Positions 4,494 to 61,649 of a stretch of 64,000 nucleotides of DNA are shown here, piece after piece (the stretch's first letter is position 1; each line of letters starts with the position of its first letter). This stretch comes from Candidatus Woesearchaeota archaeon (GTDB lineage Archaea; Nanobdellota; Nanobdellia; Woesearchaeales; JAGVZT01), in the NCBI GenBank assembly GCA_018263355.1, contig JAANXH010000054.1, positions 2,779-66,778 on the forward strand, given 5' to 3'. The notes beneath the pieces were generated by a model that ran no database searches, was not told the origin of the DNA, and saw only the letters and a list, made by a program, of their open reading frames with translations. The translations under genes were made by a program, and so were the position numbers.

Positions 4494-4612
4494 AAAAAGT
4501 GGCACAGAGGCGTTAATACCCTACATCATGTCACTAACGTTCCTGACCTTAAGCATAGCTTAAGGCTTTGGTGTAGGGATTAGCCTCTGTTTTTGACCGC
4601 CACTTTTTCGGA
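4494..4612. repeat. structured repeat family B, copy 1 (nested inverted repeats AAAAAGTGG..CAGAGGC..core..GCCTCTG..CCACTTTTT)
   Basis: near-identical core catcatgtcactaacgttcctgacNttaagcatagcttaaggcttt shared with 33850-34007; compensatory pair ccctaca/tgtaggg vs ccccaca/tgtgggg. Confidence 0.6.
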
Positions 4613-4639
4613 ACAACAAAATCTCTGATTTTGTGTCCA

Positions 4640-4690
4640 GGAAATCAAAGATTTCCTTGAATTGAAAATCCCGCAAAGCGTGATTTTCAA
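4640..4690. repeat. hairpin module X (ggaaatcaaagatttcc + gaaaatc..gattttc) adjacent to family B
   Basis: reverse complement of 33783-33839; same ggaaatc-N-gatttcc hairpin recurs at 6150, 12470, 12592, 12850. Confidence 0.4.
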
Positions 4691-12359: not shown

Positions 12360-12407
12360 AACTAAATGGAGAATAGATTTATTTAAAAGATTTATGTATA
12401 AGATATA

Positions 12408-12688
12408 TTACTCAGAATGCGTTGGGTCTAAATCCCCTGGCTGTCGGGAAGCATAGCTTCCTGAGCATGATCAGAAATCATAGATTTCTGACATTTAGCC
12501 CGTAGCATTATGAGTCTGAAAATCTGCTTATCAAAGTGAAGAGCGTAAAAGCTCCCACCTCTCAGAAATTTTAAATTTCTGATGATGGTTGCCAGAGCAA
12601 CCTATGAATGTTAATGAATATGATCAGAAAACTTTGTTTTCCGACATTTAGGTGGGAGATAAGATCTGAACAGCAGATTTTCTTTATA
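12408..12688. repeat. structured repeat family A, copy 1 (expanded by internal insertions)
   Basis: shares ttactcagaatgcgttgggtctaaa..gagtctgaaaatctgcttatcaaagtgaagagcgtaaaagc..ctgaacagcagattttcttta with 23741-23927 and 28964-29104; stem ctcccacct/aggtgggag covaries with cccccacct/aggtggggg. Confidence 0.7.
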
Positions 12689-13034: not shown

Positions 13035-15770
13035 CTACCTTGCATAGCTTTCTAATTCTGCACTGTTTCCATTAAACACATTCGCATCAACCCTTCCACC
13101 AATACCACTGACAGAACTATGAGAATTAATTTGCCAAAAATCCCATTTGCTCCAAGTATTTGGAACCATTGGACAATCAGTCTCCCAATGAGCTACCCAT
13201 AAAGGATATTCTGAAAATTCATCAGAACCAATACTTCCCCACATTCCAGGGCTTGTATAAATCATTGGTTTTATTCCAGTTCTATCCTCTACAGTTTCCA
13301 AGAATAATGCCAGATTTTCCTGCCATTGTGATGCAGGAGCATCTCTTGAAGCTTGACTGTAAAACTCTACATCAGCAACAGGAGGCAGTTCCCCATAGTC
13401 AGAACCCATAACATTAACAAAATGTTCAGCTTGTGCTCTACCATTAACATGAGGTAAGAAAAAGTGATAAGCTCCTCTTAGAATTCCATTAGATTCAGCT
13501 TCTTGCCAATTTGTTGCAAACGTATTATCAGTAAAATCATTTCCTTCTGTAGCTTTCATAAATGCAAACTCTATTCTATCTGCAGCAACAGCACTCCAAT
13601 CAATAGCATCATTATGATGAGATATATCAATACCCTTTGCTCTGTCTGTTTCAGCACAAAGTTCTGTGTTTCCAATTCCTGAAAAACTACTTGAAGCACT
13701 GCCAGAACTTCCAGAAGTGCCTTGTCCAAAACTTTGTGCAGGTGTTCCATCAGGATTACAACCAGCACCATCAATTCCACCTTCTTTAAACTGCCAGAAT
13801 CTCATATAAAATCCATCTGGGTATTCATCTGTTGTAACCAAAATCCAACAATCTCCATTATTTAACGCTGAGCCAATGACCAATAATTCGGTGTCTGAAG
13901 AGAATTGCATACCATTTTTGTATTGCATACATGGATAATCTCCATAATAATCACACCATTCCAATGTTCTGGTATCTGTTTGTTTTTCAATGGTAAAACT
14001 TTTTCCCATAAAATCTTCTTCAAAGTTTTCTGGGCAGGTAGGATATTCTGTAGGTATACTATCTCCACAATCAACATTAGTTCCTCTAACTGGGCCTAGT
14101 GGATTAGGTCCTGGTGGAACATCTTCTACTGGAACCCAGATATAGTATGTTATTGTTTCAGTTTCATATTCAACAGTGTGCTCTATACATTCTGCCATTT
14201 CTGTTTCCCAAGGATCACAATCAGGACAAAGCTTAGGTACTTCACGTGCGGGCTCTCCAACATCTTCAGATTCACAAAGTAGATAAGATTCCTCAAGATT
14301 TACTCCAAATCCACTGAAAGTAAACTCTATTCCAAACTTTAGGCAAGCATCTTTAGGTTCATCTAGGTTTCCTGCACTTGAATCATAGGGTTGTGTTGCA
14401 TCTTGAAAATCACTTAGATCAATTAAACACCAATCATCACTATCTGGAGTACAAACAGCATTTAGAACCATATCTTCATCACCAGATATATCGTTATCTG
14501 TATCTGTCCATCCAATTACAGGATCTCTATCTTCTCTAGTCCATATACAAGAGTCTCCTTTATCCGCAAATATTACCTGATTGTCATTTCTGTATCGTTC
14601 AAACTCATATCTGTCATAATAAAAATAATCCTCTGTACAATCACAATCACTTGTTGATCCTACATCATCGCAAGTCCCAGTGCAATCTCCATTACAGCTA
14701 CTGCAACTACTGACTGGTCTGGTTCCTTTTGTAGGTCCTTCACAAGTATCTCCTTCTCCTTCACCAACATCCTGATCAATATCTGATGACTGAATATATA
14801 ATTCTCCAGGAATCTCTGAAGGAGGATCGGGAGGACGTTCTGTCCAACCACCACACACTTGACAATCTTCAGTAATTATATTATCAATCTGTAAAACACT
14901 TGCATCATCTTCTTCTGTACATCTTAGCATTACTCCAAAAGGTGTAAAGTGTGTAGTTCTAGCTCTTATCACATTATTTTCCTCATCTACTTCTGAGGAT
15001 TCTAATGATACCCAAATATCTAAATCTTTATTATAATATCCTAATGTTAAATTCCCTTCACCAATAGTTGAAGGCACATCTTTTTGATGATAATTAATAA
15101 CTAATTCTACTGGATTTGAAAACTCTGCACCATCTGGCAATCCTCTGTATGCTAGCTTGCTCTTCCGATCTAAATTAGATAAATCATCAAACTCTCTGTC
15201 AAGTACTTCTATTCCTACTTCATCTGATCCACTTAGAGTTGTGCCAGGAGGTACAATAATCTGAAAATTACTATCTGAGGAAGTAATTAGTGTTTCTTGT
15301 GAAGTTTTAATTTTTTCAAATGTTTTTCTAGGTAGCACATAGTTTTGCTCCTTAAATTTTATAGTTGCATCTTGTTTTGTAAGTTCAATTGGAAATTGTA
15401 AATTTACATCAACTGTTTCCTCATTAATATTGGCCTGAACAGTAACTTCTCCTTCTTTGACTTCATATCCCTGTTCTATATATGAGGGAAGACCTTTTGT
15501 GCATCCAAGTATATTGCGAGACACATAATGTTCTATCCAGTCTTCTGAAACATCTTCATCAATACCATATGAAACCATTGCATCATTTGAGACTAATTCA
15601 AGACAAGATCCCATAAAATAATTCAATGATTCCTGTGTTTTTTTTGTATCGCTGATTTTTGGAAAATTCGGCTCTCCTTGACTTTTAGAAATTAAAAAAA
15701 AAGTACTAACTCCAACAATTAAAACAATACCTACAATAAGAAAAATACTAATTTGTGATTTTGAACCCAT
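13035..15770 (-). CDS. giant membrane-anchored cysteine-rich surface protein with C-terminal GH25 muramidase domain
   Basis: N-terminal TM SIFLIVGIVLIVGVSTFF; paralog of 15839-18217 over about 650 aa; C-terminal GIDISHHNDAIDWSAVAADRIEFAFMKATEGNDFTDNTFATNWQEAESNGILRGAYHFF (GH25). Confidence 0.8.
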   Translation of the reverse strand: MGSKSQISIFLIVGIVLIVGVSTFFLISKSQGEPNFPKISDTKKTQESLNYFMGSCLELVSNDAMVSYGIDEDVSEDWIEHYVSRNILGCTKGLPSYIEQGYEVKEGEVTVQANINEETVDVNLQFPIELTKQDATIKFKEQNYVLPRKTFEKIKTSQETLITSSDSNFQIIVPPGTTLSGSDEVGIEVLDREFDDLSNLDRKSKLAYRGLPDGAEFSNPVELVINYHQKDVPSTIGEGNLTLGYYNKDLDIWVSLESSEVDEENNVIRARTTHFTPFGVMLRCTEEDDASVLQIDNIITEDCQVCGGWTERPPDPPSEIPGELYIQSSDIDQDVGEGEGDTCEGPTKGTRPVSSCSSCNGDCTGTCDDVGSTSDCDCTEDYFYYDRYEFERYRNDNQVIFADKGDSCIWTREDRDPVIGWTDTDNDISGDEDMVLNAVCTPDSDDWCLIDLSDFQDATQPYDSSAGNLDEPKDACLKFGIEFTFSGFGVNLEESYLLCESEDVGEPAREVPKLCPDCDPWETEMAECIEHTVEYETETITYYIWVPVEDVPPGPNPLGPVRGTNVDCGDSIPTEYPTCPENFEEDFMGKSFTIEKQTDTRTLEWCDYYGDYPCMQYKNGMQFSSDTELLVIGSALNNGDCWILVTTDEYPDGFYMRFWQFKEGGIDGAGCNPDGTPAQSFGQGTSGSSGSASSSFSGIGNTELCAETDRAKGIDISHHNDAIDWSAVAADRIEFAFMKATEGNDFTDNTFATNWQEAESNGILRGAYHFFLPHVNGRAQAEHFVNVMGSDYGELPPVADVEFYSQASRDAPASQWQENLALFLETVEDRTGIKPMIYTSPGMWGSIGSDEFSEYPLWVAHWETDCPMVPNTWSKWDFWQINSHSSVSGIGGRVDANVFNGNSAELESYAR

Positions 15771-22146: not shown

Positions 22147-24078
22147 TTACTTCACGGTAACTGATTTTGCTAAGTTTCTGGGTTTGTCAGGATCTTTACC
22201 TAATTTTTTTGCTAGGTAATAAGCAAGCAATTGCATTGGTACAACATTTGCAATAGGTGAAGCATACCCACAGTCAGGAACCTTAATCCATTGATCAAAA
22301 ACTTCATTATCTTTTGGACTTACACCAATAATATGACCTCCTCTTGCTTTAACCTCTGCCGCGCTACTTAAAACAGCCATTTTATGTTCATCCTCTCCCA
22401 CAATAGCAATGCAAGGAGTAGCCTCTTCAATCAATGCAATTACACCATGCTTGAGTTCACCGCATGCAAAACCTTCTGCATGAATATAACTAATTTCTTT
22501 TATTTTCAAAGCTGATTCTAAAGCAATAGGATAATTAACACCCTTGCCAATAACATAAATGTGTTTCTTATTTTTTAGCTGATCTGCAATACGTTCAACA
22601 TTATTTAAAAAATCCTTATTAAGTAATTCTTTAATATTCTCTGCAGTATTTAGGATTAATTTTTTGCCCATTTCTTGCTTTCCTGCTAAAGTATAAGCCA
22701 GCATCAATAAAATTGCAATCTGTGAGGTAAATGCTTTTGTTGAAACAACAGAAATTTCTGGACCAGCATTCATTAGAATAGGATAATCTGAAATTCTGGT
22801 CAAACTTGAACCCATTACATTAACAATACTGGCTACTTTGGAATTATGTTTTTTTGCAGTCTCAACAGCATCTAGTGTGTCAGCAGTCTCACCACTTTGG
22901 CTAACTGCTATAACCAAGCTTTTGTCAGTAAGAAAATGTTGGTGATCAGAAAACTCGGAGCCTACTAAAAAATTAATATGTTTTTTGGCAATCTTAGAAA
23001 AATAATATGTGCCAAGTAATGCAGCATAACTTGCAGTACCGCATCCAATCAAAAAACTTCCATAAGCCTTATCAATAACTTTAGCCAGTTTTTTAACTTT
23101 TATACTATCCTGGACTGCAGAATCTTCTATAGTATCTGGTTGCTGCATTATTTCTTTGATTGTGTAGTTCTCGTAATCTCCCTTCTGTGCCTGCTCAACA
23201 TCCCAGTTAACAATTTCAATATCTTTCCTAATCTCCTTTCCAGTATTATCAAAAAACTCAATATTATTATTGATTTCTACACCTTCATCATTATCCAAAA
23301 AAACAATTTTGTTTGTATGCTCAATAAATGCAGGAATATCTGAAGCAATAAAATGACCCTTATCAGAAACACCAACAACAATTGGTGCACCCTTTCTAAT
23401 AGCAAACAATTTTTCACTAGGTTTATGAAATAACACAATTGCATTTCTTCCTTGAATAATATTACCAAGTTTGATTAAAGCGTTTCTTACCCCTAAAGAG
23501 CTATGCTCTTCAAGAAAATGAGCAATCACTTCTGTATCAGTATCAGATATAAATTTATGTTCTGAAAGTGTTTTTTTAATTTCCTGATAATTTTCAATAA
23601 TCCCATTGTGCACAACAATCATATCTTGGTTACAATCAGTTTGTGGATGAGCATTGTTCATAGTAACAGACCCATGTGTGGCCCATCTTGTGTGCCCTAA
23701 TGCAATATTACTTTTATCAAGTTTAACATCTGGATTAAAATTACTCAAAATGTCCAAGGGTCTAAAGCCCCGCCCTTTAGGGCGAGGACTTTTGAGTCTG
23801 AAAATCTGCGTGTCGAAGTGAAGAGCGTAAAAGCCCCCACCTTCAGGTGGGGGAATCAGTTGCCAGAGCAACTCAGAAACGAAGCAAAGCGAAGTGAGAT
23901 TAGCTCTGAACAGCAGATTCTCTTTACCTATCTTCCCTACTTTCTTGATTAGCTGCAGATCATTATCAAAAGTTGCAATTCCCCAAGAATCATAACCCCT
24001 GTACTCTAATCTTTTCAAACCTTCAATAACAATATCTGTTGCATTACCTTTTCCTTTATATGCTATTATACCACACAT
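22147..24078 (-). CDS. glmS: glutamine--fructose-6-phosphate aminotransferase (GlmS) carrying an about 62-aa in-frame insertion from repeat family A
   Basis: MCGI N-terminal nucleophile, HTRWATHG, two SIS domains, C-terminal KSVTV; insertion between GKIGKENL and LGHTRWATHG. Confidence 0.85.
   Translation of the reverse strand: MCGIIAYKGKGNATDIVIEGLKRLEYRGYDSWGIATFDNDLQLIKKVGKIGKENLLFRANLTSLCFVSELLWQLIPPPEGGGFYALHFDTQIFRLKSPRPKGRGFRPLDILSNFNPDVKLDKSNIALGHTRWATHGSVTMNNAHPQTDCNQDMIVVHNGIIENYQEIKKTLSEHKFISDTDTEVIAHFLEEHSSLGVRNALIKLGNIIQGRNAIVLFHKPSEKLFAIRKGAPIVVGVSDKGHFIASDIPAFIEHTNKIVFLDNDEGVEINNNIEFFDNTGKEIRKDIEIVNWDVEQAQKGDYENYTIKEIMQQPDTIEDSAVQDSIKVKKLAKVIDKAYGSFLIGCGTASYAALLGTYYFSKIAKKHINFLVGSEFSDHQHFLTDKSLVIAVSQSGETADTLDAVETAKKHNSKVASIVNVMGSSLTRISDYPILMNAGPEISVVSTKAFTSQIAILLMLAYTLAGKQEMGKKLILNTAENIKELLNKDFLNNVERIADQLKNKKHIYVIGKGVNYPIALESALKIKEISYIHAEGFACGELKHGVIALIEEATPCIAIVGEDEHKMAVLSSAAEVKARGGHIIGVSPKDNEVFDQWIKVPDCGYASPIANVVPMQLLAYYLAKKLGKDPDKPRNLAKSVTVK
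23741..23927. repeat. structured repeat family A, copy 2, inside glmS coding sequence (reverse orientation to gene, no stop codons in gene frame)
   Basis: ttactcaaaatgtccaagggtctaaagcccc..gagtctgaaaatctgc..gtgaagagcgtaaaagcccccaccttcaggtggggg..ctgaacagcagattctctttac. Confidence 0.7.
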
Positions 24079-26078: not shown

Positions 26079-27499
26079 TTTTTTATCAACTCAGCAATCT
26101 TTTTTCCTTCAGCTTTTCCCCTAAACTTCTTCATAGCAATCCCCATCAAAGCTCCCATTGAAAGATCAGGTTTAGACTCCACAATCTTTTTTAATTCCTG
26201 CTCAAGTTTTTTATCAGACATTGTTTCATATTTTGAAATATCTATTTTTTTCCCTTTTGAAACCTCAACAAGAATCTCAAAAACAGCTTCCTCTGCAATT
26301 TTATCTTTATCTAAAGAAGAAAAAAGCTTTTCTAATACTTCTTTTCCATAATTTGGCTCAACATTATATCTTTTCTTGATATCTTTTTGAGAATTAATTA
26401 AGGTAGCAGCAATAAATGTAGGATCAAGATTCTTAAACTTTCTAAACTCTTTAAACATCTTAAGTTTCTTTTCTTTAACAAGTGTTGATGCAATCTCTTT
26501 GCTAATCCCAAGCTCTTTAAGATCTTCAATCTTTTCAGTAATCAGCTTTGGAACCTCAACATTTTTATCAGGTCTAATCGGAGGAATATCTGTTTCAGGA
26601 TACATTCTTGCAGAACCAGGAATAGGTCTTAAAAAAATAGTACTCAAATCATCTTCTGCTTTTCTAACATCCTTGCTAACTTTCTTGCCCTGTTTGATCA
26701 GTCTTTGCTGCCTTTTAATCTCTTTATCAATTATCTTTGGCATAGACTTTAAATCCTGAAAACCCTTAATCTCAACTCTGGCACCTTTTTTAATTGATAA
26801 ATTTACATCTTGTCTAATAGTTCCTAAACCTCTTTTTACTTTAGTTGACCTTAAAATCATTCCTAGCTTTGCTGCAACCTCTTTGGCATGCTCAGGATCT
26901 TTTATAGATGCATCAGTTGCAATCTCAACTAAAGGAATTCCTAATCTAGAAAGATTATAAACATCAAACTTTTTAGTTCTTTTAACAATTTTGGCAGCAT
27001 CTTCTTCAAGACATATCAAATCAATCTTAACTTTGCCTTTTGAAGTCTTAATAAAACCATTTCTTGCAATGAGCGCTGTCCTTTGAAAAGCCGAGGTATT
27101 AGAACCATCAACAATTGTTTTTCTCATAACCTGAATCTCATCAACAATCTCTGCATTTAACAATTTTGCAACAATAAGAGCAACCTTCAATGCTTGTGTA
27201 TTTATTGGATGTGGTGGTTCTTCATCAAGCTCAACTAAACAAGAAGATTCCTTAAAATATTGATATTCAAAATATTTTTTCTTACTCATTTCATGCTTTG
27301 CAGCAATATCCACATCTCCTGTTTCTCCTGCAGCAGCCCACAAATATCTCTTAACAGTCTTGTCAGGCTTTCCATCAACAATATTGCTTGGACATTCACA
27401 AAATAATTTATGAGTGTCAAGCTGCTGATGAATTTCGATCCCACACTTAAATCCTAATTTTTTATAGTCCATTTTAAAATAAGAATGACTTAGCATCAC
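26063..27499 (-). CDS. gatE: Glu-tRNA(Gln) amidotransferase subunit E
   Basis: MDYKKLGFKCGIEIHQQLDTHKLFCECPS N-terminus typical of GatE; adjacent to gatD. Confidence 0.85.
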   Translation of the reverse strand: MMLSHSYFKMDYKKLGFKCGIEIHQQLDTHKLFCECPSNIVDGKPDKTVKRYLWAAAGETGDVDIAAKHEMSKKKYFEYQYFKESSCLVELDEEPPHPINTQALKVALIVAKLLNAEIVDEIQVMRKTIVDGSNTSAFQRTALIARNGFIKTSKGKVKIDLICLEEDAAKIVKRTKKFDVYNLSRLGIPLVEIATDASIKDPEHAKEVAAKLGMILRSTKVKRGLGTIRQDVNLSIKKGARVEIKGFQDLKSMPKIIDKEIKRQQRLIKQGKKVSKDVRKAEDDLSTIFLRPIPGSARMYPETDIPPIRPDKNVEVPKLITEKIEDLKELGISKEIASTLVKEKKLKMFKEFRKFKNLDPTFIAATLINSQKDIKKRYNVEPNYGKEVLEKLFSSLDKDKIAEEAVFEILVEVSKGKKIDISKYETMSDKKLEQELKKIVESKPDLSMGALMGIAMKKFRGKAEGKKIAELIKKWKKG

Positions 27500-28784
27500 T
27501 TCTTTTAGTAATCTCTCCCCTTAGATTTTTAATCATCATCTCTTTTGCTTTTTCACAATCCTTTGTCTGCCCCAAAACCCAGCCTAATTTTACATAAGCA
27601 ACCTCAGGCAGCATATCACTCGGCAGTTTTTCACCATAAATCATACCAGTATCATGAGCAAGTCTTAAATTTCTATAAACAAAAGGATGAATTCTTCCAT
27701 AAAGTGTGGTGGAAGCCATAACCACAACCAAACCCTTATCAATTGCTTTTTTAATATAAGGTATCCATGACATTTTTTTGTTAAATTTACCAGCTTTTGT
27801 ACCAGATTCTCCTGTAGGCACATGTCCTAATGCTGTACCTTCAATAACTAACCCTTTATATCCATTTTTAATATACCAATCAATAATACTGGGATCAGAA
27901 CCAGGAAAGACTTTGACAATAGCAACCTTTTTTTCAAACTTGGTTTTTGCAACCACTTTTTTATCAGATCTTTTATCAAAATTTTCATTAATTATCTTGA
28001 TTTTACCATCAGTCCAAATTTTTGCTAAAGGCAATTCATTAATTGGTCTGAAAGCATCTCTTCTTGAAGTGTGCATCTTCCTGCACTTTGTTCCCCTGAT
28101 AGCATAACAAAACTCATCTGAAGAAGAGCCATGCATCACAATAGCAACTCCTGCAAAATCAGATTTGCAAAAATGTGCTGCACAAATCAAATTCATCTTG
28201 CCATCAAAACTACCTCTGTCAGGAGAGCGCTGAGCACCAACCACTGCTACAGGTTTATTTAAATCTTCAAGCATAAAAGATAACACAGCACTAGTATAAT
28301 GTAATGTGTCAGTTCCGTGAGTTAAAATAACTCCTTGTGCACCAGAGTTTAATTCATCTGCAATTAATTTTGCCAGTTTTTTGTAATTATCAATAGACAT
28401 ATCTTCACTGGCTGTTGTAAAAGGAGATAAAGTTTTGATATTAATTATATTTGCAAGCTTTGGAGTGGTTGCTAAAATCTCTTCAGGAGTCCTGCACATA
28501 AAAACCCCTCCTGTTTTATAATCCACATGTGTTCCAATAGTGCCCCCTGTTGCAATAAAAGTCACTTTAGGAAGGTCTTTTTTTTGTTTTACTTTTTTTG
28601 TTTTAATCTTTCCAATACCTTTCCCAGACTTAATCTTTTTTATTTTAACTACTTTTTTCTTATCAATGCCCATATTATACCCGTTTTTGAGTTTAATCAC
28701 AACAAAACTACCCTGTTGAGGCATGAGAATTCCTTTTATTGTCTCTTTTTTAGTTTTAACCTGAACATGATCTCCTGGTTTCAT
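27474..28784 (-). CDS. gatD: Glu-tRNA(Gln) amidotransferase subunit D (asparaginase-like)
   Basis: N-terminal MKPGDHVQVK..; asparaginase domain GGTIG..VILTHGTDTLHYTSAVLSFML. Confidence 0.85.
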   Translation of the reverse strand: MKPGDHVQVKTKKETIKGILMPQQGSFVVIKLKNGYNMGIDKKKVVKIKKIKSGKGIGKIKTKKVKQKKDLPKVTFIATGGTIGTHVDYKTGGVFMCRTPEEILATTPKLANIINIKTLSPFTTASEDMSIDNYKKLAKLIADELNSGAQGVILTHGTDTLHYTSAVLSFMLEDLNKPVAVVGAQRSPDRGSFDGKMNLICAAHFCKSDFAGVAIVMHGSSSDEFCYAIRGTKCRKMHTSRRDAFRPINELPLAKIWTDGKIKIINENFDKRSDKKVVAKTKFEKKVAIVKVFPGSDPSIIDWYIKNGYKGLVIEGTALGHVPTGESGTKAGKFNKKMSWIPYIKKAIDKGLVVVMASTTLYGRIHPFVYRNLRLAHDTGMIYGEKLPSDMLPEVAYVKLGWVLGQTKDCEKAKEMMIKNLRGEITKRSDAKSFLF

Positions 28785-28832
28785 ACATAACCTATCTTTT
28801 AAAACTTATATAAATTTTACTATAAAGGCCAA

Positions 28833-28952
28833 TTTCAACTACTATGTGTTAGCATAATGCATGATTTAAGTGAAGGAGACAATCAGTTAAAAGTCAGGTT
28901 TTAACTCTTGCTTTAGCAAGTATGAAACGAGTAGTTTCTTTAGAGAACTTTG
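28833..28952. repeat. partial or rearranged copy of repeat family E in gatDE leader
   Basis: tcaactactatgtgttagc..tgatttaagtgaaggagacaa and tttagagaactttg match the two ends of the E element. Confidence 0.4.
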
Positions 28953-28963
28953 AAATACCCATT

Positions 28964-29104
28964 TTACTCAGAATGCGTTGGGTCTAAAGCCCCGGGCTTT
29001 AGCCCGCAGCATTATGAGTCTGAAAATCTGCTTATCAAAGTGAAGAGCGTAAAAGCCCCCTCCTTTAGGTGGGGGATCAGCTCTGAACAGCAGATTTTCT
29101 TTAC
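28964..29104. repeat. structured repeat family A, copy 3 (compact form)
   Basis: ttactcagaatgcgttgggtctaaagccccgggctttagccc..gagtctgaaaatctgcttatcaaagtgaagagcgtaaaagccccctcctttaggtggggg..ctgaacagcagattttctttac. Confidence 0.7.
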
Positions 29105-29647: not shown

Positions 29648-31738
29648 ATGAGAAAATCAGAAAAAACTTTTATTATAATTAACATAGTTTGTTTATTATT
29701 TGCAGCAGCTGTAATAATAAATGGGCTAGTGCAAAAACCAGTTTATACAAATCCAGGAACATATAATCAATTATCTTTTGATCCAGACAGTCCAGTAAAA
29801 ACTAAACAATTTGATTCTGTTCAAGATTATCAGGATTTTATCAGTAATAGCGGAGGCCAAAGTTCCTCATATTATGGTGCTAGAACATTGGGGGTTGCAC
29901 AAGATAGTGCTGGGATGATGGTAGAATCTGCTGCAAAAATAGAGTCTGCTCCAAGCGCAGGTGGATCAGATTACTCAGAAACAAATGTGCAGGTTGAAAA
30001 TGTAGATGAAGGAGATGTAATAAAAACCGACGGAGAATATATATACACAATTTCAGACAATACCTTGTTTATTGTAAAAGCATATCCAGGACAAGAAGCA
30101 GAAGTAGTATTTTCAGAAAAACTAGACAATAAGCCAACTGGCATGTTTATTAAAGGAAATAAGTTAGCTGTTTTTGGACAATTTAATAATATAGAATATT
30201 TTAAAAAAATAGATTTTCGGCCAAAGTACGGCATGACTTATCTTAACATATATGATACAACTGACAAATCAGACCCAGAACTAGTAAAGGAATTCAAATT
30301 TGAAGGATCTTATTTTAATTCAAGAATGATTCAGGATGATATGTATCTAATAGTAAGAACCAGACCATATTATAGAGATGCGTTTCCAACACCTCTAATG
30401 ATAGAAGGTGAAAGAAAAATTGGCATGCCAGTGAGTGATATTCATTATTATAACATCCCATACAATAATCCACAATTAGTAACAGTTTATTCTGTTGATA
30501 TTGATGATAATGAGGCAGTAGATTCTGCAGCAGTAGCTGTTGAGTATGGTCAAAACATGTACATGTCAGAGAATAATATCTTCATAACATACACAGAAAG
30601 AATTAATGAATACGAGATTCAACAAGAAATAGTAATGGATTTAATGCAAGACAAGCTTACAGATGCTGACAAACAAGTAGTGGAAAAAATAAAAGCAACA
30701 GATAACCAAGTATTAAGTCAAAGAGAAAAACAGCAAAAAATCATGCAGATATATGAATCCTATGTTTATTACCTTGATCAGGAGGAACAAGACGAACTGC
30801 AAGATAAGGCAGAATTAATGCTAAAAAACAAGCTTGAAAAATATAAGCACTTAGAGTTCACGGTTATTAACAAAATAGAAGCTGATAATGGCCAAGTCAA
30901 GGTAGGTTCAAACGGAAAAGTACCTGGACAAATTATCAACCAATTCTCAATGGATGAAAATGATAATGTGTTTAGAATAGCAACTACCATAAACTCAAGA
31001 TGGTCAAGATTTGACAAACAAAGAACACAGTCAACAAACAATGTATATGCATTAAATCAGAATCTTGATATAATCGGTGAACTAGAAGGGCTTGCACCTG
31101 GAGAAAGAATTTACTCAACCAGATTTATGCATGACAGACTCTACATGGTAACATTTAAGCAAGTTGATCCATTCTTTGTTATAGACTTGAGTAATCCAAG
31201 AGATATTGAGCAATTGGGTAAACTAAAAATACCTGGATTTTCAAGATATCTTCACCCTTATGATGAGGACACAATAATTGGGATTGGTCAGGAGGCAACA
31301 GAAACAGGCAGAACAACTGGATTGAAAATATCTTTATTTGATGTTAGTGATGTTGAAAACCCAGAGGAAATAGCCAAATTTGTAACAGAAGAAAGATATG
31401 CAAGATCCACTGCATTGTATGAGCACAAAGCATTCTTGTTTTCAAAAGAAAAAGAGCTTTTGGTAATCCCTGCATATAGTTATAATTACAAAGACAGTGA
31501 AGGTTACAATGGGGCTTTTGTTTTTGACATAACCAAAGACAATATTGAACTTAGAGGTCTAATTGACCATTCACAAGGTTCAGGCAGACACTATCGTCCA
31601 AGTGTTGAAAGAAGTCTGTATATTGAGGAACTGCTGTATACTAAATCACCAACATTGCTGAGAATAAATCAACTAGAAGATTTAAGTTCAGTAAAATCAG
31701 TTAAGCTTGAGCAAGAGTCAGACATCAAGGTCTATTGA
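29648..31738 (+). CDS. secreted beta-propeller domain protein (tentative family assignment)
   Basis: signal-anchor IINIVCLLFAAAVIING; YSTRFMHDRLYMVTFKQVDPFFVIDLSNPRDIEQLGKLKIPGFSRYLHPYDEDTIIGIGQEA block. Confidence 0.55.
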   Translation: MRKSEKTFIIINIVCLLFAAAVIINGLVQKPVYTNPGTYNQLSFDPDSPVKTKQFDSVQDYQDFISNSGGQSSSYYGARTLGVAQDSAGMMVESAAKIESAPSAGGSDYSETNVQVENVDEGDVIKTDGEYIYTISDNTLFIVKAYPGQEAEVVFSEKLDNKPTGMFIKGNKLAVFGQFNNIEYFKKIDFRPKYGMTYLNIYDTTDKSDPELVKEFKFEGSYFNSRMIQDDMYLIVRTRPYYRDAFPTPLMIEGERKIGMPVSDIHYYNIPYNNPQLVTVYSVDIDDNEAVDSAAVAVEYGQNMYMSENNIFITYTERINEYEIQQEIVMDLMQDKLTDADKQVVEKIKATDNQVLSQREKQQKIMQIYESYVYYLDQEEQDELQDKAELMLKNKLEKYKHLEFTVINKIEADNGQVKVGSNGKVPGQIINQFSMDENDNVFRIATTINSRWSRFDKQRTQSTNNVYALNQNLDIIGELEGLAPGERIYSTRFMHDRLYMVTFKQVDPFFVIDLSNPRDIEQLGKLKIPGFSRYLHPYDEDTIIGIGQEATETGRTTGLKISLFDVSDVENPEEIAKFVTEERYARSTALYEHKAFLFSKEKELLVIPAYSYNYKDSEGYNGAFVFDITKDNIELRGLIDHSQGSGRHYRPSVERSLYIEELLYTKSPTLLRINQLEDLSSVKSVKLEQESDIKVY

Positions 31739-32890
31739 TGTCTCTCTTATCATCAGGATTAATCCTGTTGAAACAAATACAGATGCAGCTATTCCCACGC
31801 TGCCTGGAAAAGAATAATTAATAAGCAATCCTCCAATTAAAGGTCCAATAATTTGGGAAATACTAGCAAGAGAACTTGCTACCCCCATTATTGTTCCTTG
31901 TTCTTTTTTTGATACTAATCTTGAAATCTTTCCATTAAATAAAGGTCTTGAAAGTCCAGTGCCAACTGCAAACAGAGTAATAAAACCATAATACATAATT
32001 GTGCTTGAAATAAATGGTGTAGATAATAAACCAACCAGCATCAAAGTTACTGATGCATAATGCAACATCCTTTCTCCAATTTTATCAATTAAAATTCCAA
32101 GGAAAATTCCTCTTAATACAATACTTATTCCTCCCACATAGGCCAGTAACCAGCCCATATCAACTGCAGTAAATCCTAGCTGTCTTTCAGCATACATTGC
32201 AGAACTGCTAACCCAAATAACATGAGCCATAAAATATGTGAAAGCTTGCATTAATACCTGAGTTATACCAGGTTTTTTAAAATACTTAATATAATCCTGA
32301 AAATGAAATATCTTAAAATCAAATTCAAGATCTTTTCTGGATTTAACTGTTTCAGGAAGCAACAAATATGTTAAAATAATGGTTACTAAAGATATTGCAG
32401 CTGCAGCTAAAGCTGGATACATATAACCAAATCCAGACAACCAGCCTCCAATTGCAGGTCCAAACAAGAACCCCACCCCAAATGCAACTCCGCTTATTCC
32501 AAAGATCTTACTTCTGTTTTTTTCTGAAGAAATATCACTTAAATAAGCCTGAGCAATAGTAAAATTACTTCCAACTAATCCATCAATGACCCTTGATAAT
32601 AAAATCATCCAATAAGTTCCTGAAAATGCTAGTACAATAAAACTAACAAAAGTTGAAAACTGTGAAATAATTAGCATAGGTCTTCTTCCAAAATAATCAC
32701 TTAGCCTGCCCATAAAAGGAGCAGAAACAAACTGACATATTGAAAATACAGCAAGAATTATCCCAACAAAAAACGGACTTGCACCCAATTCCTGGGCAAA
32801 AAAAGGAAGATATGGTAAAACTAAGGAAAATCCTAGCACTTCTGTGACTAAAATAAGAAAAATGATTATCTTATGTTTTGTGTATTTCAT
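31718..32890 (-). CDS. MFS transporter
   Basis: MFS motif A GRLSDYFGRRPMLIIS; 12 TM layout. Confidence 0.85.
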   Translation of the reverse strand: MKYTKHKIIIFLILVTEVLGFSLVLPYLPFFAQELGASPFFVGIILAVFSICQFVSAPFMGRLSDYFGRRPMLIISQFSTFVSFIVLAFSGTYWMILLSRVIDGLVGSNFTIAQAYLSDISSEKNRSKIFGISGVAFGVGFLFGPAIGGWLSGFGYMYPALAAAAISLVTIILTYLLLPETVKSRKDLEFDFKIFHFQDYIKYFKKPGITQVLMQAFTYFMAHVIWVSSSAMYAERQLGFTAVDMGWLLAYVGGISIVLRGIFLGILIDKIGERMLHYASVTLMLVGLLSTPFISSTIMYYGFITLFAVGTGLSRPLFNGKISRLVSKKEQGTIMGVASSLASISQIIGPLIGGLLINYSFPGSVGIAASVFVSTGLILMIRETSIDLDV

Positions 32891-32934
32891 TAATATTGCA
32901 AGTAAGTGTTTACTTTTAAATTTAATTATTGAGA

Positions 32935-33120
32935 GGCAAAGTCACTGATCTGTGTTAGCTCCATAAATGCCTGATTTAAGTGAAGGAGACAACGATGATC
33001 GTAAGAGTCAGTGGGGGAACAGTTTGCCTTCTGTAAATAAAACTTAATGCAATATGAATGGGTTTTAGCAAACTGGCGACTGAACCTGCAATGTGGGGCT
33101 AACATTAACTTGACTTCGCC
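32935..33120. repeat. repeat family E, copy 1: about 186-nt element bounded by 13-bp terminal inverted repeats (ggcaaagtcaNtg / cNttgacttcgcc), MITE-like, in MFS gene leader
   Basis: about 90% identical to reverse complement of 42022-42210; shared context continues to caatattaATGAAA start. Confidence 0.6.
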
Positions 33121-33138
33121 TTATTGAGAAATATTAAC

Positions 33139-33555
33139 TTATTTTTTAGACTTTTTTCTTTTCTTAGGTTTTGCCTTATGGTTTTGTTTTGCTTTATGAT
33201 AAATAATACCTATTGCAATAATTGTAAGACAAAGGGCAATTAACAAAGGAATATTTGGGCTGCGAGCAGGTTTTTCAATATTAGGTGTTTTAAAATCTCC
33301 AACATCAGGAACATTAACATAGTATTCATACTCTTTACTGCAATCTTTTTTATGAGCACAAACCCCAAAACCTTTTTTATCACAGCAAACCTGGTCTGGA
33401 GCACAATCTGTATTAAATTTGCAAAACTCCTGACAATCCCCATCACAGTGCATAGTTTGAACAACTCTTCCTGTAACAGAACTGCCCAAAAAGTATAAAG
33501 TAATAGACAAAGTAATAATAAACAATGATACAAAAACAGCCTCTTTTCTTTGCAT
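33139..33555 (-). CDS. small membrane-anchored cysteine-rich protein with polybasic C-terminal tail
   Basis: N- and C-terminal TM; CDGDCQEFCKFNTDCAPDQVCCDKKGFGVCAHKKDC; tail KPKKRKKSKK. Confidence 0.6.
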   Translation of the reverse strand: MQRKEAVFVSLFIITLSITLYFLGSSVTGRVVQTMHCDGDCQEFCKFNTDCAPDQVCCDKKGFGVCAHKKDCSKEYEYYVNVPDVGDFKTPNIEKPARSPNIPLLIALCLTIIAIGIIYHKAKQNHKAKPKKRKKSKK

Positions 33556-33782
33556 ACTCTTTTATTTAAACTATTTACTTAAAAACTTTTCTATTAAGAT
33601 TCAGGCAGTGATACAATCTAGATTAATGAAGCGAGATCTACTTTTCGTTATTTGAAAATTTTACAGGTTTAATATGTCTGAAAAATGTTGTTTTTCTGAT
33701 CATCTCAGAAATCTTCAATTTCTAAGACCTCACATAATATCACTTAGGTTCCTAACTTTCAGCGTAGCTGAAAGCTTCAGTG

Positions 33783-33839
33783 TGAAATTTTCAATTCAAG
33801 GAAATCTTTGATTTCCTGAAAAGAAAATGTTTCACATTT
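33783..33839. repeat. hairpin module X, inverted copy, adjacent to family B copy 2
   Basis: gattttcaattcaaggaaatctttgatttcctg is reverse complement of 4640-4672. Confidence 0.4.
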
Positions 33840-33849
33840 TCAAGTTCCG

Positions 33850-34007
33850 AAAAAGTGGTAGTCAAAGCAGAGGCGACAATACCCCACATCATGTCACTAA
33901 CGTTCCTGACATTAAGCATAGCTTAAGGCTTTATTGTGGGGATTGGTTGGAAAGCGAAGCTTTACAACTCACTGAACACAGTGACCGTGAGCCTCTGCAC
34001 CACTTTT
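33850..34007. repeat. structured repeat family B, copy 2
   Basis: same core and nested stems as 4494-4612, with compensatory substitutions. Confidence 0.6.
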
Positions 34008-41097: not shown

Positions 41098-41267
41098 TGG
41101 CCAGTGCTACAAATGGACTGATAGTGGTCAAAATTCGTCTGTGCCGTGGATGACATGAAATGACTTTTTTGTTATTCATGGCGGGGCCAGACGTAGTTTT
41201 TCTGCAGGAAAAACAGAGTAGGATTTTGAACCATATTAGTCACTCTGATACACTGCCAAAATTTGTA
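41098..41267 (-). promoter_or_regulatory. repeat family D copy 1: about 170-nt structured leader element immediately 5' of the HMA-DsbD_2 gene
   Basis: about 90% identical to 61399-61556 with compensatory changes (gccgtgg/tcatggc vs gccatgg/tcgtggc; GGCAGTG/CACTGGCC vs GGCGGTG/CACTGCC). Confidence 0.55.
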
Positions 41268-41421: not shown

Positions 41422-41964
41422 ATGAAACAAAAGCAGATAAGTACAATAATTATCATCCTCGGCATAGTTTTTGCAGCAGTGATATATAGTGTTAAGGTAA
41501 GAGAAGACAATTATATTGCAAATATTGTTGATGAAACAGGCTCTTGTTATTTATCAGATGGTACATGTCTGCACAAAGATAGAAACATAACAACATATTT
41601 GATTGGAGGTGCTGTCTCTGTTGCAATGCTATTTTTTGGATTATATCTGAGATTTATTGATAAAACTCAGGAATTCTTAGAAAAACACCAAAAACAAGTA
41701 TCAAAAGCACTTTCTAAAGCAAAAAAAGAGGAAAGGAAGAAAGATGAGTTCCAAGCATTCTTGGCAGGGTTTGAAGAGGACGAACAAAAGATCCTTAAAG
41801 CAGTAAAAGATCAGGAAGGCATAAAGCAATCTACTCTCCGCTACAAAACAAATCTATCTAAAACTGCAGTCTCTTTAATTCTCAAATCATTAGAAGAAAA
41901 AGGTTTTGTGAGCAGAAAACCAAGTGGTAAGACAAAAGAAGTTTATCTGGTTAAGAAATTCTAA
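41422..41964 (+). CDS. membrane-anchored winged-helix (MarR-like) transcription regulator
   Basis: N-terminal TM; C-terminal KAVKDQEGIKQSTLRYKTNLSKTAVSLILKSLEEKGFVSRK. Confidence 0.5.
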   Translation: MKQKQISTIIIILGIVFAAVIYSVKVREDNYIANIVDETGSCYLSDGTCLHKDRNITTYLIGGAVSVAMLFFGLYLRFIDKTQEFLEKHQKQVSKALSKAKKEERKKDEFQAFLAGFEEDEQKILKAVKDQEGIKQSTLRYKTNLSKTAVSLILKSLEEKGFVSRKPSGKTKEVYLVKKF

Positions 41965-42021
41965 AACTATCAACTTGGTCACTAATCAAGTCAGCACACT
42001 GCTAAGCAGTTAAAAGTTCTC

Positions 42022-42210
42022 GGCAAAGTCAACTTAATTGTGGAAAGCCCCATAATACCGGTTCAGTCGCCAGTTTGCTAAACTCTCCTTGATATTGTAT
42101 TAAGTCATATTAATAGACGGCAAACTGTTCCCACTGACTCTTACGATCATCGTTGTCTCCTTCACTTAACTCAGGCATTAATGGAGCTAACACAGAGTAG
42201 TTGACTTTGC
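42022..42210. repeat. repeat family E, copy 2: MITE-like element with perfect 13-bp terminal inverted repeats ggcaaagtcaact/agttgactttgcc, in EamA gene leader
   Basis: inverted copy of 32935-33120; same orientation relative to downstream gene as copy 1. Confidence 0.6.
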
Positions 42211-42267
42211 CAAAGTTCTCTAATTTTACCAATAAATTTATTAACAATAATCTTTTGTACAATATTA

Positions 42268-43125
42268 ATGAAACTCAATAAAAAATTATTATATGTTGCA
42301 ATTTTTTCAATCAGCTGGGCATTTGTTATTACAATAAACAAGCATGGCTTGAACTTAGGAACAAAACCTTTTCAATATACAGCACAAACCAATTTCATAA
42401 CAGCAATAATTCTTTCTCTTTTAGTTTTCTTTACAAAAAAACAAGAATTTGCAAAAATTGATAAAAATCTAATCTTAAAGATGATAGCAATAGGATTGTG
42501 TGTTGGTATTGCATACATAACAGGAATTTACGGCCTAAAATTAACATCTTCCATAAACTATGGATTTGTAATTAAAAGCGCAATGATTTTCACAATTATT
42601 CAGGCATATATTTTTCTAAAAGAAAAACTTACAAAACAAAAAATTCTGTTATTAATAGTATTTACAATTGGTGCTTATCTGGTTACAACTGCTGGTAAAT
42701 TATTAATACCTAAACCAGGTGACTTGTTAACTATGGTTGCAGCGCTTGGTTTTAGCAGTGCCAACATTATCCAGAAAAAACTAACAAAGGAAATTGATCC
42801 AGTACTGATTACCTGGGCAAGAATCACCTTTGCATTTTTGACAGTTGCAATTGCATCATTAGTAATTGGAAAAAACATATTTGAGATAATTGCGCCAGTT
42901 CATGTCATTGCAGTAGGGTTTTTATCTGTAATTCTAGTAATTTATCTTGTAAAAACATTATCTGTTGCAAGCGCATCTTATCTAACAATGACGTCAATGA
43001 TAACCCCATTTTTAGTTACAATATTTGGACTAGTTTTTCTAAAAGAAACAATAAACATATTCCAGATAATCGGTGGAATTTTGATTATAGGTTGTGGTGT
43101 ATTGGTACATAAGCTAGATATGTAG
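42268..43125 (+). CDS. EamA/DMT-family transporter
   Basis: 285 aa, 10 TM, two EamA-like halves. Confidence 0.75.
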   Translation: MKLNKKLLYVAIFSISWAFVITINKHGLNLGTKPFQYTAQTNFITAIILSLLVFFTKKQEFAKIDKNLILKMIAIGLCVGIAYITGIYGLKLTSSINYGFVIKSAMIFTIIQAYIFLKEKLTKQKILLLIVFTIGAYLVTTAGKLLIPKPGDLLTMVAALGFSSANIIQKKLTKEIDPVLITWARITFAFLTVAIASLVIGKNIFEIIAPVHVIAVGFLSVILVIYLVKTLSVASASYLTMTSMITPFLVTIFGLVFLKETINIFQIIGGILIIGCGVLVHKLDM

Positions 43126-61398: not shown

Positions 61399-61556
61399 GG
61401 CAGTGTTACAAATAGACTGATGGTGGTCAAAATTCGTCTGTGCCATGGATGACATGAAATAACCTTTTTGTTATTCGTGGCAGGGCCAGACGTAGTTTTT
61501 CTGCAGGAAAAACAGAGTAGGATTTTGAACAATATCAGTCACTCTGATACACCGCC
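61399..61556 (-). promoter_or_regulatory. repeat family D copy 2: structured leader element 5' of mscL
   Basis: see 41098-41267; GGTGAG Shine-Dalgarno-like 5 nt upstream of ATG at 61371. Confidence 0.55.
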
Positions 61557-61649
61557 TTAACTTGACATTGCCTGTCTTATGTATCACTACAAAATGCTAA
61601 AATTTATATATCAGTGTATCTTTTTGTAAACTACAAAAAAGAGGTTATA

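Follow-up and report, generated by a model that had tools for sequence, protein, structure and literature searches.

Element E, a probable MITE upstream of two transporter genes and gatD in a Woesearchaeota genome

Element E, a non-coding repeat of 186-190 nt in a Woesearchaeota genome, is very probably a MITE. The MITE-like character that the initial annotation had proposed is borne out by its terminal inverted repeats (TIRs), by target-site duplications (TSDs) of 9 bp, by empty sites at orthologous loci, and by ends shared with a transposase-bearing insertion sequence (IS) that has the same TSD length. We consider it most likely, with somewhat less confidence than we place in the MITE assignment itself, that E was moved in trans by an IS6-like transposase, which would be its putative helper. 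MITEs are well known in archaea, and family E is a new example of this known class. The source DNA is an 86-kb contig of an NCBI MAG (Candidatus Woesearchaeota archaeon, locus tags MAG795_), and the window, which is the whole stretch of 64,000 nucleotides that was analyzed, is AT-rich (GC = 33%).

Copies, termini and target-site duplications of element E

The window contains two full copies of E, one fragment and one possible solo end in 64 kb. These features, the TSDs and the downstream genes are as follows.

32926..32934, no strand: TSD TTATTGAGA, gene-proximal, copy 1; 9/9 identical to 33121-33129
32935..33120, minus strand: element E, full copy 1; 186 nt, 44 nt 5′ of the MFS ATG (32890)
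33121..33129, no strand: TSD TTATTGAGA, gene-distal, copy 1; 9/9
42013..42021, no strand: TSD AAAGTTCTC, left, copy 2; 9/9 identical to 42212-42220
42022..42211, plus strand: element E, full copy 2; 190 nt, 56 nt 5′ of the EamA ATG (42268)
42212..42220, no strand: TSD AAAGTTCTC, right, copy 2; 9/9
28827..28904, minus strand: truncated, diverged copy 3; gene-proximal E end only, model positions 132-190 of 192
61557..61572, plus strand: solo E-like terminus TTAACTTGACATTGCC; agrees with the end of copy 1 at 14/16 positions, a weak, single 16-nt match
31718-32890, minus strand: MFS transporter gene, downstream of copy 1
42268-43125, plus strand: EamA/DMT transporter gene, downstream of copy 2
27474-28784, minus strand: gatD (GatD), downstream of copy 3

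The repeat is real at the places where it had been reported and lies far beyond chance, as judged by alignment, nhmmer and 17-mer counts. In a global alignment, copies 1 and 2 are identical at 163 of 192 positions (85%); they have opposite orientations on the plus strand and thus appear as inverted repeat pairs. A repeat search of the window gave a best block of 72 nt at 94% identity (32944-33015 vs 42130-42201) and two more collinear blocks. When the window was searched by nhmmer with a profile built from copies 1 and 2, the full copies were recovered with E-values of 1e-65 to 1e-67 and the third copy with 3.5e-8, and the 17-mer TTGTCTCCTTCACTTAA has exactly three occurrences in the window (0.5 expected at up to 3 mismatches).

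The extent first given for copy 1 holds, while copy 2 spans 42022-42211 (190 nt) and not 42022-42210. The stop codon of the ORF at 33139-33555 (minus strand) lies 9 nt before copy 1, which is on the minus strand like the MFS gene, and the stop codon of the MarR-like ORF at 41422-41964 lies 57 nt before copy 2. A degenerate copy near gatDE, which had been placed at 28833-28952, does exist, but significant homology covers 28827-28904 only, so that what is present is a terminal fragment. Its terminus (GGCCAATTTCAACT) is 42-44 nt 5′ of the gatD ATG (28784), and neither a second end nor a duplication is recognizable. An unrelated repeat (family D1) follows copy 3 from about 28961. No other match to E was found in the window besides the terminus-like stretch at 61557-61572, which directly abuts a copy of repeat family D2. 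The window also carries at least three other repeat families.

The TIRs of E are about 20-30 bp long and start with GGCAAAGTCAACTTAA. The 13-bp TIRs of the initial annotation are perfect in copy 2, where GGCAAAGTCAACT occupies 42022-42034 and 42199-42211 with looser pairing out to about 30 nt; in copy 1 they are imperfect and have decayed to GGCAAAGTCACTG and GGCGAAGTCAAGT. Perfect 9-bp direct repeats lie directly outside the TIR tips of each full copy. They had been overlooked in the first reading of the sequence, which had named a lack of such duplications among the findings that would refute it. The length of these duplications is fixed at 9 bp and their sequence differs between copy 1 and copy 2, and a 9/9 direct-repeat match is expected by chance at about 1e-5 per site at the base composition of the window. 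The copies are 15% apart and yet their TSDs are perfect, which requires the two copies to have had different source copies as parents rather than each other.

E is non-coding, with no ORF that is conserved between copies and no similarity to transposases, and no called gene is on record for the 59-aa ORF that copy 1 contains. The antisense motif aaggagacaacgATG described in the initial annotation is present in copies 1 and 2. The mini-ORF that follows it, reported to have 13-14 codons, has 13 codons in one copy and 16 in the other and is not conserved: a 2-nt indel changes the reading frame and leaves only the residues MIVRVSG common to both peptides, and the copy 3 fragment lacks the ATG. Candidates for a known RNA were also rejected. 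Rfam gave only a noise match to a microRNA model, and a tRNA-derived element was set aside when ARAGORN found no tRNA genes in the window.

To the copies within the window at least one more can probably be added. Short-read contigs from three runs in Logan (k = 31) break off within the element, exactly 30 nt into copy 2 and 44 nt into copy 1, and the corresponding 30-mers are in neither other copy of the window. At k = 31 such break points suggest a repeat end that is shared with at least one further copy, and we infer that at least one further copy of the E end is present elsewhere in the sample, outside the window.

Orthologous loci in a relative and position of E at promoters

The closest available relative, GCA_964419615.1, which also occurs in JGI and ENA metagenomes, has the same gene neighbourhood, with amino acid identities to the window of 71% for EamA, 72% for MFS and 79% for GatD. 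At the MFS locus, the spacer in the relative is 48 bp and contains no element, compared to 248 bp in the window (186 + 9 + 53); both flanking genes are kept in the relative, the upstream 138-aa gene being orthologous at 67% identity. The divergent spacer between gatD and a 107-aa gene is 107 bp in the relative and 417 bp in the window, again with no element in the relative, and the homology to the relative stops exactly at the terminus of copy 3. The EamA spacer is 65 bp in the relative and 303 bp in the window, and here too the relative has no element. This empty site is weaker than that at MFS because the gene order 5′ of EamA differs between the two genomes, the MarR-like gene being inverted and a 162-aa gene being absent. 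No E-like sequence was found in about 70 kb of the relative's loci. The presence/absence check at orthologous loci that had been proposed thus came out in favor of mobility at MFS and gatD and, less cleanly, at EamA. With the relative's loci empty, we conclude that E is an insertion in the lineage of the window and not an ancestral leader.

We also examined where E lies with respect to the promoters of the three genes. Among 40 gene starts of the window, TTTA[TA][AT] boxes, which often lie within AAGATTTATATA-like motifs, are concentrated in the -30..-26 bin (14 boxes, vs 1-5 in other bins). Archaeal TATA boxes are centered about 26 nt before the transcription start, and the spacing of the boxes from the ATG therefore points to leaderless or near-leaderless mRNAs. 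The boxes of the two transporter genes are located between E and the ATG, outside E.

32913..32923, minus strand: TATA-like box AAATTTAAAAG of MFS; TTTAAA from -30
42231..42245, plus strand: TATA-like box AATAAATTTATTAAC of EamA; TTTATT from -31

For MFS, EamA and gatD, the box is at -30/-31 in each case and the E boundary is at -44, -56 and about -42 to -44, respectively, so that all three E boundaries are upstream of both the box and the BRE. The same box stands equally far from the ATG in the relative, where there is no element, and the gene-proximal end of E contains no TATA-like box. The initial annotation had placed E in the leaders of the downstream genes and had suggested that it may be promoter-bearing. 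Neither proposal agrees with these findings: E is upstream of the predicted core promoter, which argues that it would lie outside the leaders of the downstream genes and would not be needed as their promoter. The similarity that had been reported to continue to the start codon of the transporter genes is not continuous either. E ends at the 9-bp duplications, and the next 30-42 nt align only at the generic promoter box. Beyond these 30-42 nt, and outside the duplications, an identical 14-mer (CAATATTAATGAAA) is present at the MFS and EamA starts. The 8 nt of it that precede the ATG form the longest match of this kind in 780 gene pairs, and 6-nt matches occur between unrelated genes. CAATATTAATGAAA lies outside the mobile unit, and we regard it as either a coincidence or a shared initiator context.

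Elements with E-type ends and a candidate helper

The interior of E (pattern TTGTCTCCTTCACTTAAN{8,24}GCTAACAC) gave 0 matches in the genome, metagenome and viral collections, among which the source MAG is not included. Because the interior was unmatched in these collections, the termini were used as the query. A TIR-to-TIR scan of 185,579 species genomes identified a 193-nt element in the Woesearchaeota MAG Tobar13.5m-G65, which has the same 12-nt ends, an unrelated interior and a perfect 9-bp TSD (CACAAAATT). The other nine genome matches come from bacteria. Three of them, a pair from a single Porcincola MAG and one from a betaproteobacterium, are long palindromes with the same 11-nt tip and no evident TSD, and the remaining ones look like chance matches inside genes. 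Viral carriage was rejected, as viral contigs gave 0 matches to the ends or the interior of E.

In JGI metagenomes, the single-end pattern GGCAAAGTCAACTTAANTGNG had 11 matches, of which three are cut by contig ends, three are without a partner end and five have an inverted partner. Two of the three partnerless matches are GC-rich and may be chance matches. Four of the five partnered elements have a perfect 9-bp TSD, namely elements of 79, 99 and 286 nt and an IS of 906 nt. This IS (L031) has the ends GGCAAAGTCAACTTAAGTGGG and GGCAAAGTCAAGTTGAGTGTG and the 9-bp TSD GCAGCAAAT, and it encodes a 262-aa DDE transposase; the 906-nt IS and a 904-nt sister contain a single protein each (262/263 aa). 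The transposase scored 67 bits against Pfam DDE_Tnp_IS240 (cut-off 27), 117 bits against NCBIfam IS6, which is just under the cut-off of 125, and 60 bits against NCBIfam IS1, which is under the cut-off of 100. Its N-terminus scored 34 bits against the IS1/IS1595 zinc-ribbon domain (cut-off 28) and 24.5 bits against the InsA-like zinc ribbon, under the cut-off of 26.1. An earlier guess that the TIRs resemble those of IS256 or IS903 was discarded, since the IS that matches encodes an IS240/IS6-type DDE protein.

Homologues of the transposase number more than 432, and the majority lie on contigs of about 0.9-1.4 kb, the pattern to be expected of a repeated IS. The named homologues are from Woesearchaeota and Nanoarchaeota, and the three that were looked up are from assemblies other than the source. 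Relatives of the transposase at about 65% identity are flanked by related ends (GGTAATATCAAGTTAAGTGGGAAAA; GGTTAAGTAAGATTAAGTGGGAAAAC) and by 9-bp TSDs that match at 9/9 and 8/9 positions. The gene-distal end of copy 2 is identical to the left end of the IS at 22/27 positions, including positions outside the search pattern. A 9-bp TSD is present in 7 of the 8 elements examined, five of these being further elements with E-type ends beyond copies 1 and 2. One IS copy (L023) has no duplication, a single case that could be explained by recombination between copies or by an intramolecular event. The tip GGCAAAG is found at 15 of 16 tabulated ends; the IS matches share this tip partly by construction of the search pattern, and the independent evidence is that of the partner ends, the TSD length and the transposase. 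The putative helper would be an IS of about 905 bp with GGCAAAGTCAAC ends. A fixed insertion distance from gene starts was rejected as a trait of the family, as other members are inserted at various positions. Within the window, we found neither the transposase (tblastn with the 262-aa transposase, and an ORF check) nor a full-length IS; TIR-like 13-mer pairs with up to 3 mismatches and 80-5000 bp apart comprised only the two full E copies and chance pairs.

These findings are consistent with the following mechanism. E would be a non-coding transposon of 186-190 bp whose TIRs would be bound and cleaved by a DDE transposase provided in trans. The helper would be an IS6-like IS of about 905 bp, widespread in DPANN archaea, that encodes a 262-aa DDE_Tnp_IS240 protein with an N-terminal zinc ribbon. 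This transposase may bind the tips of about 20-27 bp and join them to target DNA whose strands are cut 9 bp apart, and gap repair after strand transfer would then produce the 9-bp direct repeats. Either copy-in with cointegrate resolution, as in IS26, or cut-and-paste is a possible route. The two full copies and the fragment would have been inserted after the lineage of the window split from the closest available relative, and E would persist in the scant spacer of a compact genome, which runs from the upstream stop codon to the downstream BRE/TATA box.

Alternative readings and comparison with known systems

An element that is mobile could still have been retained for a function in cis, with the kept copies acting as a regulatory site, a promoter, a read-through terminator hairpin or by operator displacement. 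Such exaptation would account for the uniform orientation and the placement beside promoters. The orientation relative to the downstream gene is indeed the same in all three copies, as had been noted initially, and each copy is 42-56 nt from the ATG, directly 5′ of the BRE/TATA. The 72-nt interior block is better kept than the whole element (94% vs 85%), with a core that is also what the fragment preserves best, copy 2 separates the gene of a MarR-like regulator from the EamA transporter gene, and both strands of E fold better than shuffled sequences (z = -3.3 to -5.1). However, three of three copies in one orientation has a chance probability of p = 0.25 at n = 3. The whole MFS spacer of the relative is 48 bp, so that the insertion point is almost the sole one that would be tolerated; each gene keeps its canonical box at -30/-31 as in the element-free relative, with no TATA-like box in the gene-proximal E end; related elements elsewhere have no fixed distance to gene starts; and a strong, hairpin-like fold is expected from the inverted repeats alone. 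We therefore regard exaptation as unlikely and suggest that E has no regulatory role. Retained copies of E could also bring to DPANN promoters an upstream control module that travels with the element, or an antisense small RNA. The uniform orientation, the docking at 42-56 nt from the starts against the BRE/TATA and the well-kept 72-nt block with its antisense Shine-Dalgarno-ATG are the reasons for considering this, and we hold it to be distinctly improbable. If it were true, transporter genes would have their expression rewired by transposition, in a genome where intergenic space is almost absent.

Readings in which E is not a mobile element fit the data far less well. A cis-regulatory leader RNA of riboswitch-like type, shared by the two transporter genes and gatDE and duplicated with them, could draw on the structured sequence, on the fact that two of the three downstream genes encode transporters, and on the identical 14-mer at both start codons. 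However, E is bounded by TIRs and 9-bp TSDs. It lies upstream of the predicted promoter, and so is probably not co-transcribed with the gene, and in a relative with the same genes it is missing from the orthologous loci, which does not agree with a transcribed 5′ leader conserved at orthologues. In addition, the window gave no Rfam match at gathering thresholds and none of the copies gave one at E ≤ 1, and 85-94% DNA identity without covariation points to a recent common origin and not to a conserved fold. The shared regulatory leader that had been offered as an explanation is thus very unlikely. An antisense small RNA or micro-protein gene would consist of a Shine-Dalgarno-like AAGGAGA, an ATG and an ORF of 13-16 codons. 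In its favor, AAGGAGACAACGATG is identical in copies 1 and 2 and the antisense strand folds slightly better (z = -5.1 vs -3.8). The frameshift that leaves seven residues in common, the unequal lengths, the loss of the ATG in copy 3 and the position of the ORF within a TSD-delimited transposon all speak against such a gene, and we give it very little credence. Duplication of an intergenic segment without transposition is extremely improbable. In its favor, no more than two full copies are seen and the start-codon 14-mer falls outside the repeat. Against it, the tips of the inverted repeats mark the exact limits of homology, the 9-mer that is perfectly duplicated around one copy differs from that around the other, and the flanks are otherwise unrelated. 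Taken together, these results favor the reading of E as a MITE.

The reading of E as a MITE accounts for the enlargement of three intergenic regions in this very compact Woesearchaeota genome, which is of value mainly for annotation, and this repeat should not be taken for a riboswitch or a leader. The same reading explains the breaks in short-read assembly at these loci of the source organism. In the searchable literature, we found no description of a DPANN IS group that combines an IS240-type DDE domain, an IS1-like zinc ribbon and a 9-bp TSD, and the group of the putative helper is apparently both abundant and undescribed.

The elements of the IS6 family classically make 8-bp duplications and move through cointegrates; the established route of the bacterial IS26 is by replicative cointegrates that host recombination resolves, and zinc fingers have been described in clostridial transposases of 340-350 aa (PMC7986276). 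The TIRs of the family have GG tips and a G at position 7, and a K-x-R signature after the catalytic E has been noted for its archaeal members; the archaeal 'IS6' elements have been the subject of no experimental study and their family status is disputed (PMC6807381). Harmer and Hall have argued that they may fall outside the IS6 family altogether. The candidate helper is like archaeal IS6 elements and IS26 in its size of about 905 bp, in a single ORF that fills the element and in short, GG-tipped inverted repeats, and its transposase is like that of archaeal IS6 elements in a DDE_Tnp_IS240 match well over the cut-off and in a K-x-R after the catalytic E (IERLNKEIKRR). In contrast, its NCBIfam IS6 score is below the cut-off (117 < 125 bits), its protein of only 262 aa carries an additional zinc ribbon, of the IS1/IS1595 type, at the N-terminus, and the TSD of the group is consistently 9 bp and so departs from the 8-bp criterion. 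An IS group with these features bears on whether the archaeal 'IS6' elements should be classed as a separate family. IS1 is 768 bp long and has a TSD of 8-9 bp. The candidate helper resembles IS1 in its 9-bp duplication, its small size and its InsA-like zinc ribbon (24.5 vs 26.1 bits), and differs from it in a single ORF without the InsA/InsB frameshift, in a DDE domain that is matched best as IS240, and in its NCBIfam IS1 score (60 vs 100 bits).

For E itself, the nearest known systems are the IS6-family MITEs in ISfinder, MITEBth2 and MITEHarch3, of 227 and 336 bp (PMC7986276, PMC6807381). Like these, E is short and non-coding and has two IS-type ends, and its ends match those of an IS with an IS240/IS6-type DDE transposase, with the GG tip and the G at position 7 (GGCAAAG). 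E differs from them in a 9-bp rather than an 8-bp duplication, in an interior that is unrelated to the IS found and in its DPANN host. Its terminus also lacks the cTGTt/caaa motifs described for the IS6 family, and MITEBth2 and MITEHarch3 are set apart from E by description only. Archaeal MITEs include Sulfolobus SM1-SM4. In a census of 8,220 archaeal genomes, one Woesearchaeal genome reached 105 MITEs/Mb (PMC11602168), and E, with three or more further repeat families in the same 64 kb, supports this published MITE richness of some Woesearchaeal genomes. Compared to archaeal MITEs generally, the sequence of E is in no searched collection, but E is like them in being intergenic, in being bounded by TIRs and TSDs, and in belonging to a multi-family load in a compact genome.

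Additional repeat families in the window

Besides the MITE-like family E, three sets of repeated sequences were found in the window:
D1, approximately 12407-12686, 23740-23926 and 28961-29103, all on the plus strand
D2, 41099-41265 (copy a) and 61399-61556 (copy b), copies of about 165 nt that are 91% identical
D3, 4505-4669 and 33714-33944, 77-nt direct copies (91%) with inverted partner blocks

The D1 copies share GC-rich conserved blocks in a genome of 33% GC (TTACTCAGAATG..GGGTCTAAAGCCCC..TGAGTCTGAAAATCTGC..ATCAAAGTGAAGAGCGTAAAAGCCCC..GCTCTGAACAGCAGATTTTCTTTA), between which lie variable hairpin inserts of 0-90 nt. Rfam returned no match for D1, which looks like either a structured RNA or a further non-autonomous element. 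The D1 copy at 28961 adjoins the E fragment upstream of gatD and, like that fragment, is missing from the gatD spacer of the syntenic relative (GCA_964419615.1).

D2 ends in GGC(C)AGTG...CAC(T/C)GCC, and a 7-bp direct repeat, AAAATTT, is present on both sides of copy a. D2 probably represents a further MITE family whose ends differ from those of E. Directly after copy b, a 16-nt stretch, TTAACTTGACATTGCC (61557-61572), is identical to the E terminus at 14 of 16 positions; it may be what is left of an E-type end that was broken by the D2 insertion. D3 constitutes a third intergenic repeat family within the window; its inverted partner blocks measure 42 nt (93%) and 31 nt (84%), and it lies ~600 bp from the E copy upstream of the MFS gene.

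The EamA locus and gene starts

Comparison of the EamA region with the corresponding locus of the close relative (L005) revealed a local rearrangement, with 41422-41964 of the window set against 8838-9935 of L005. The MarR-like gene beside EamA is on the opposite strand to that of the relative, and the relative's 162-aa gene is absent from the region in the window. Since the rearranged segment is flanked by D2 copy a and by the E copy upstream of EamA, with D2 copy a ~750 bp upstream of that E copy, the rearrangement may be repeat-mediated. In addition, a perfect short palindrome, ACTGCTAAGCAGT (41995-42010), was observed between the MarR-like gene and the E copy, and it could be an operator that the E insertion shifted ~200 bp off the EamA promoter.

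Across 40 gene starts of the whole window there is a strong promoter signature of AAGATTTATATA-like boxes, with TTTA[TA][AT] starting -30 to -26 from the ATG, and this spacing implies that the mRNAs would be mostly leaderless. Shine-Dalgarno-like leaders, GGAGG/GGTGA, precede a minority of the genes (e.g. 13035-15770 and 29648-31738).

Elements elsewhere with E-type ends

The pattern of the E ends also matched bacterial long-palindrome elements of ~176-179 nt:
L011 4796-4971 and L018 3069-3244 (Porcincola sp. MAG)
L013 1193-1371 (Betaproteobacteria GR16-43)

Their tips likewise read GGCAAAGTCAAAG..., and no target duplication was obvious at these three elements; the shared tip could have arisen convergently, or the elements could belong to a distantly related family.

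Ends of the E type, or related to it, also bound a group of small IS of about 905 bp:
L031 371-1276 and L023 637-1540, JGI metagenome contigs
L032, L034 and L036

This IS encodes a single 262-aa transposase, in which a zinc ribbon of the IS1/IS1595 type is joined to a DDE domain of the IS240 type; its stop codon falls within the right inverted repeat. These elements generate 9-bp duplications. Their homologues number more than 432, many of them on contigs exactly the size of the IS, and the group appears to be an undescribed, DPANN-wide clade of IS6-like elements.
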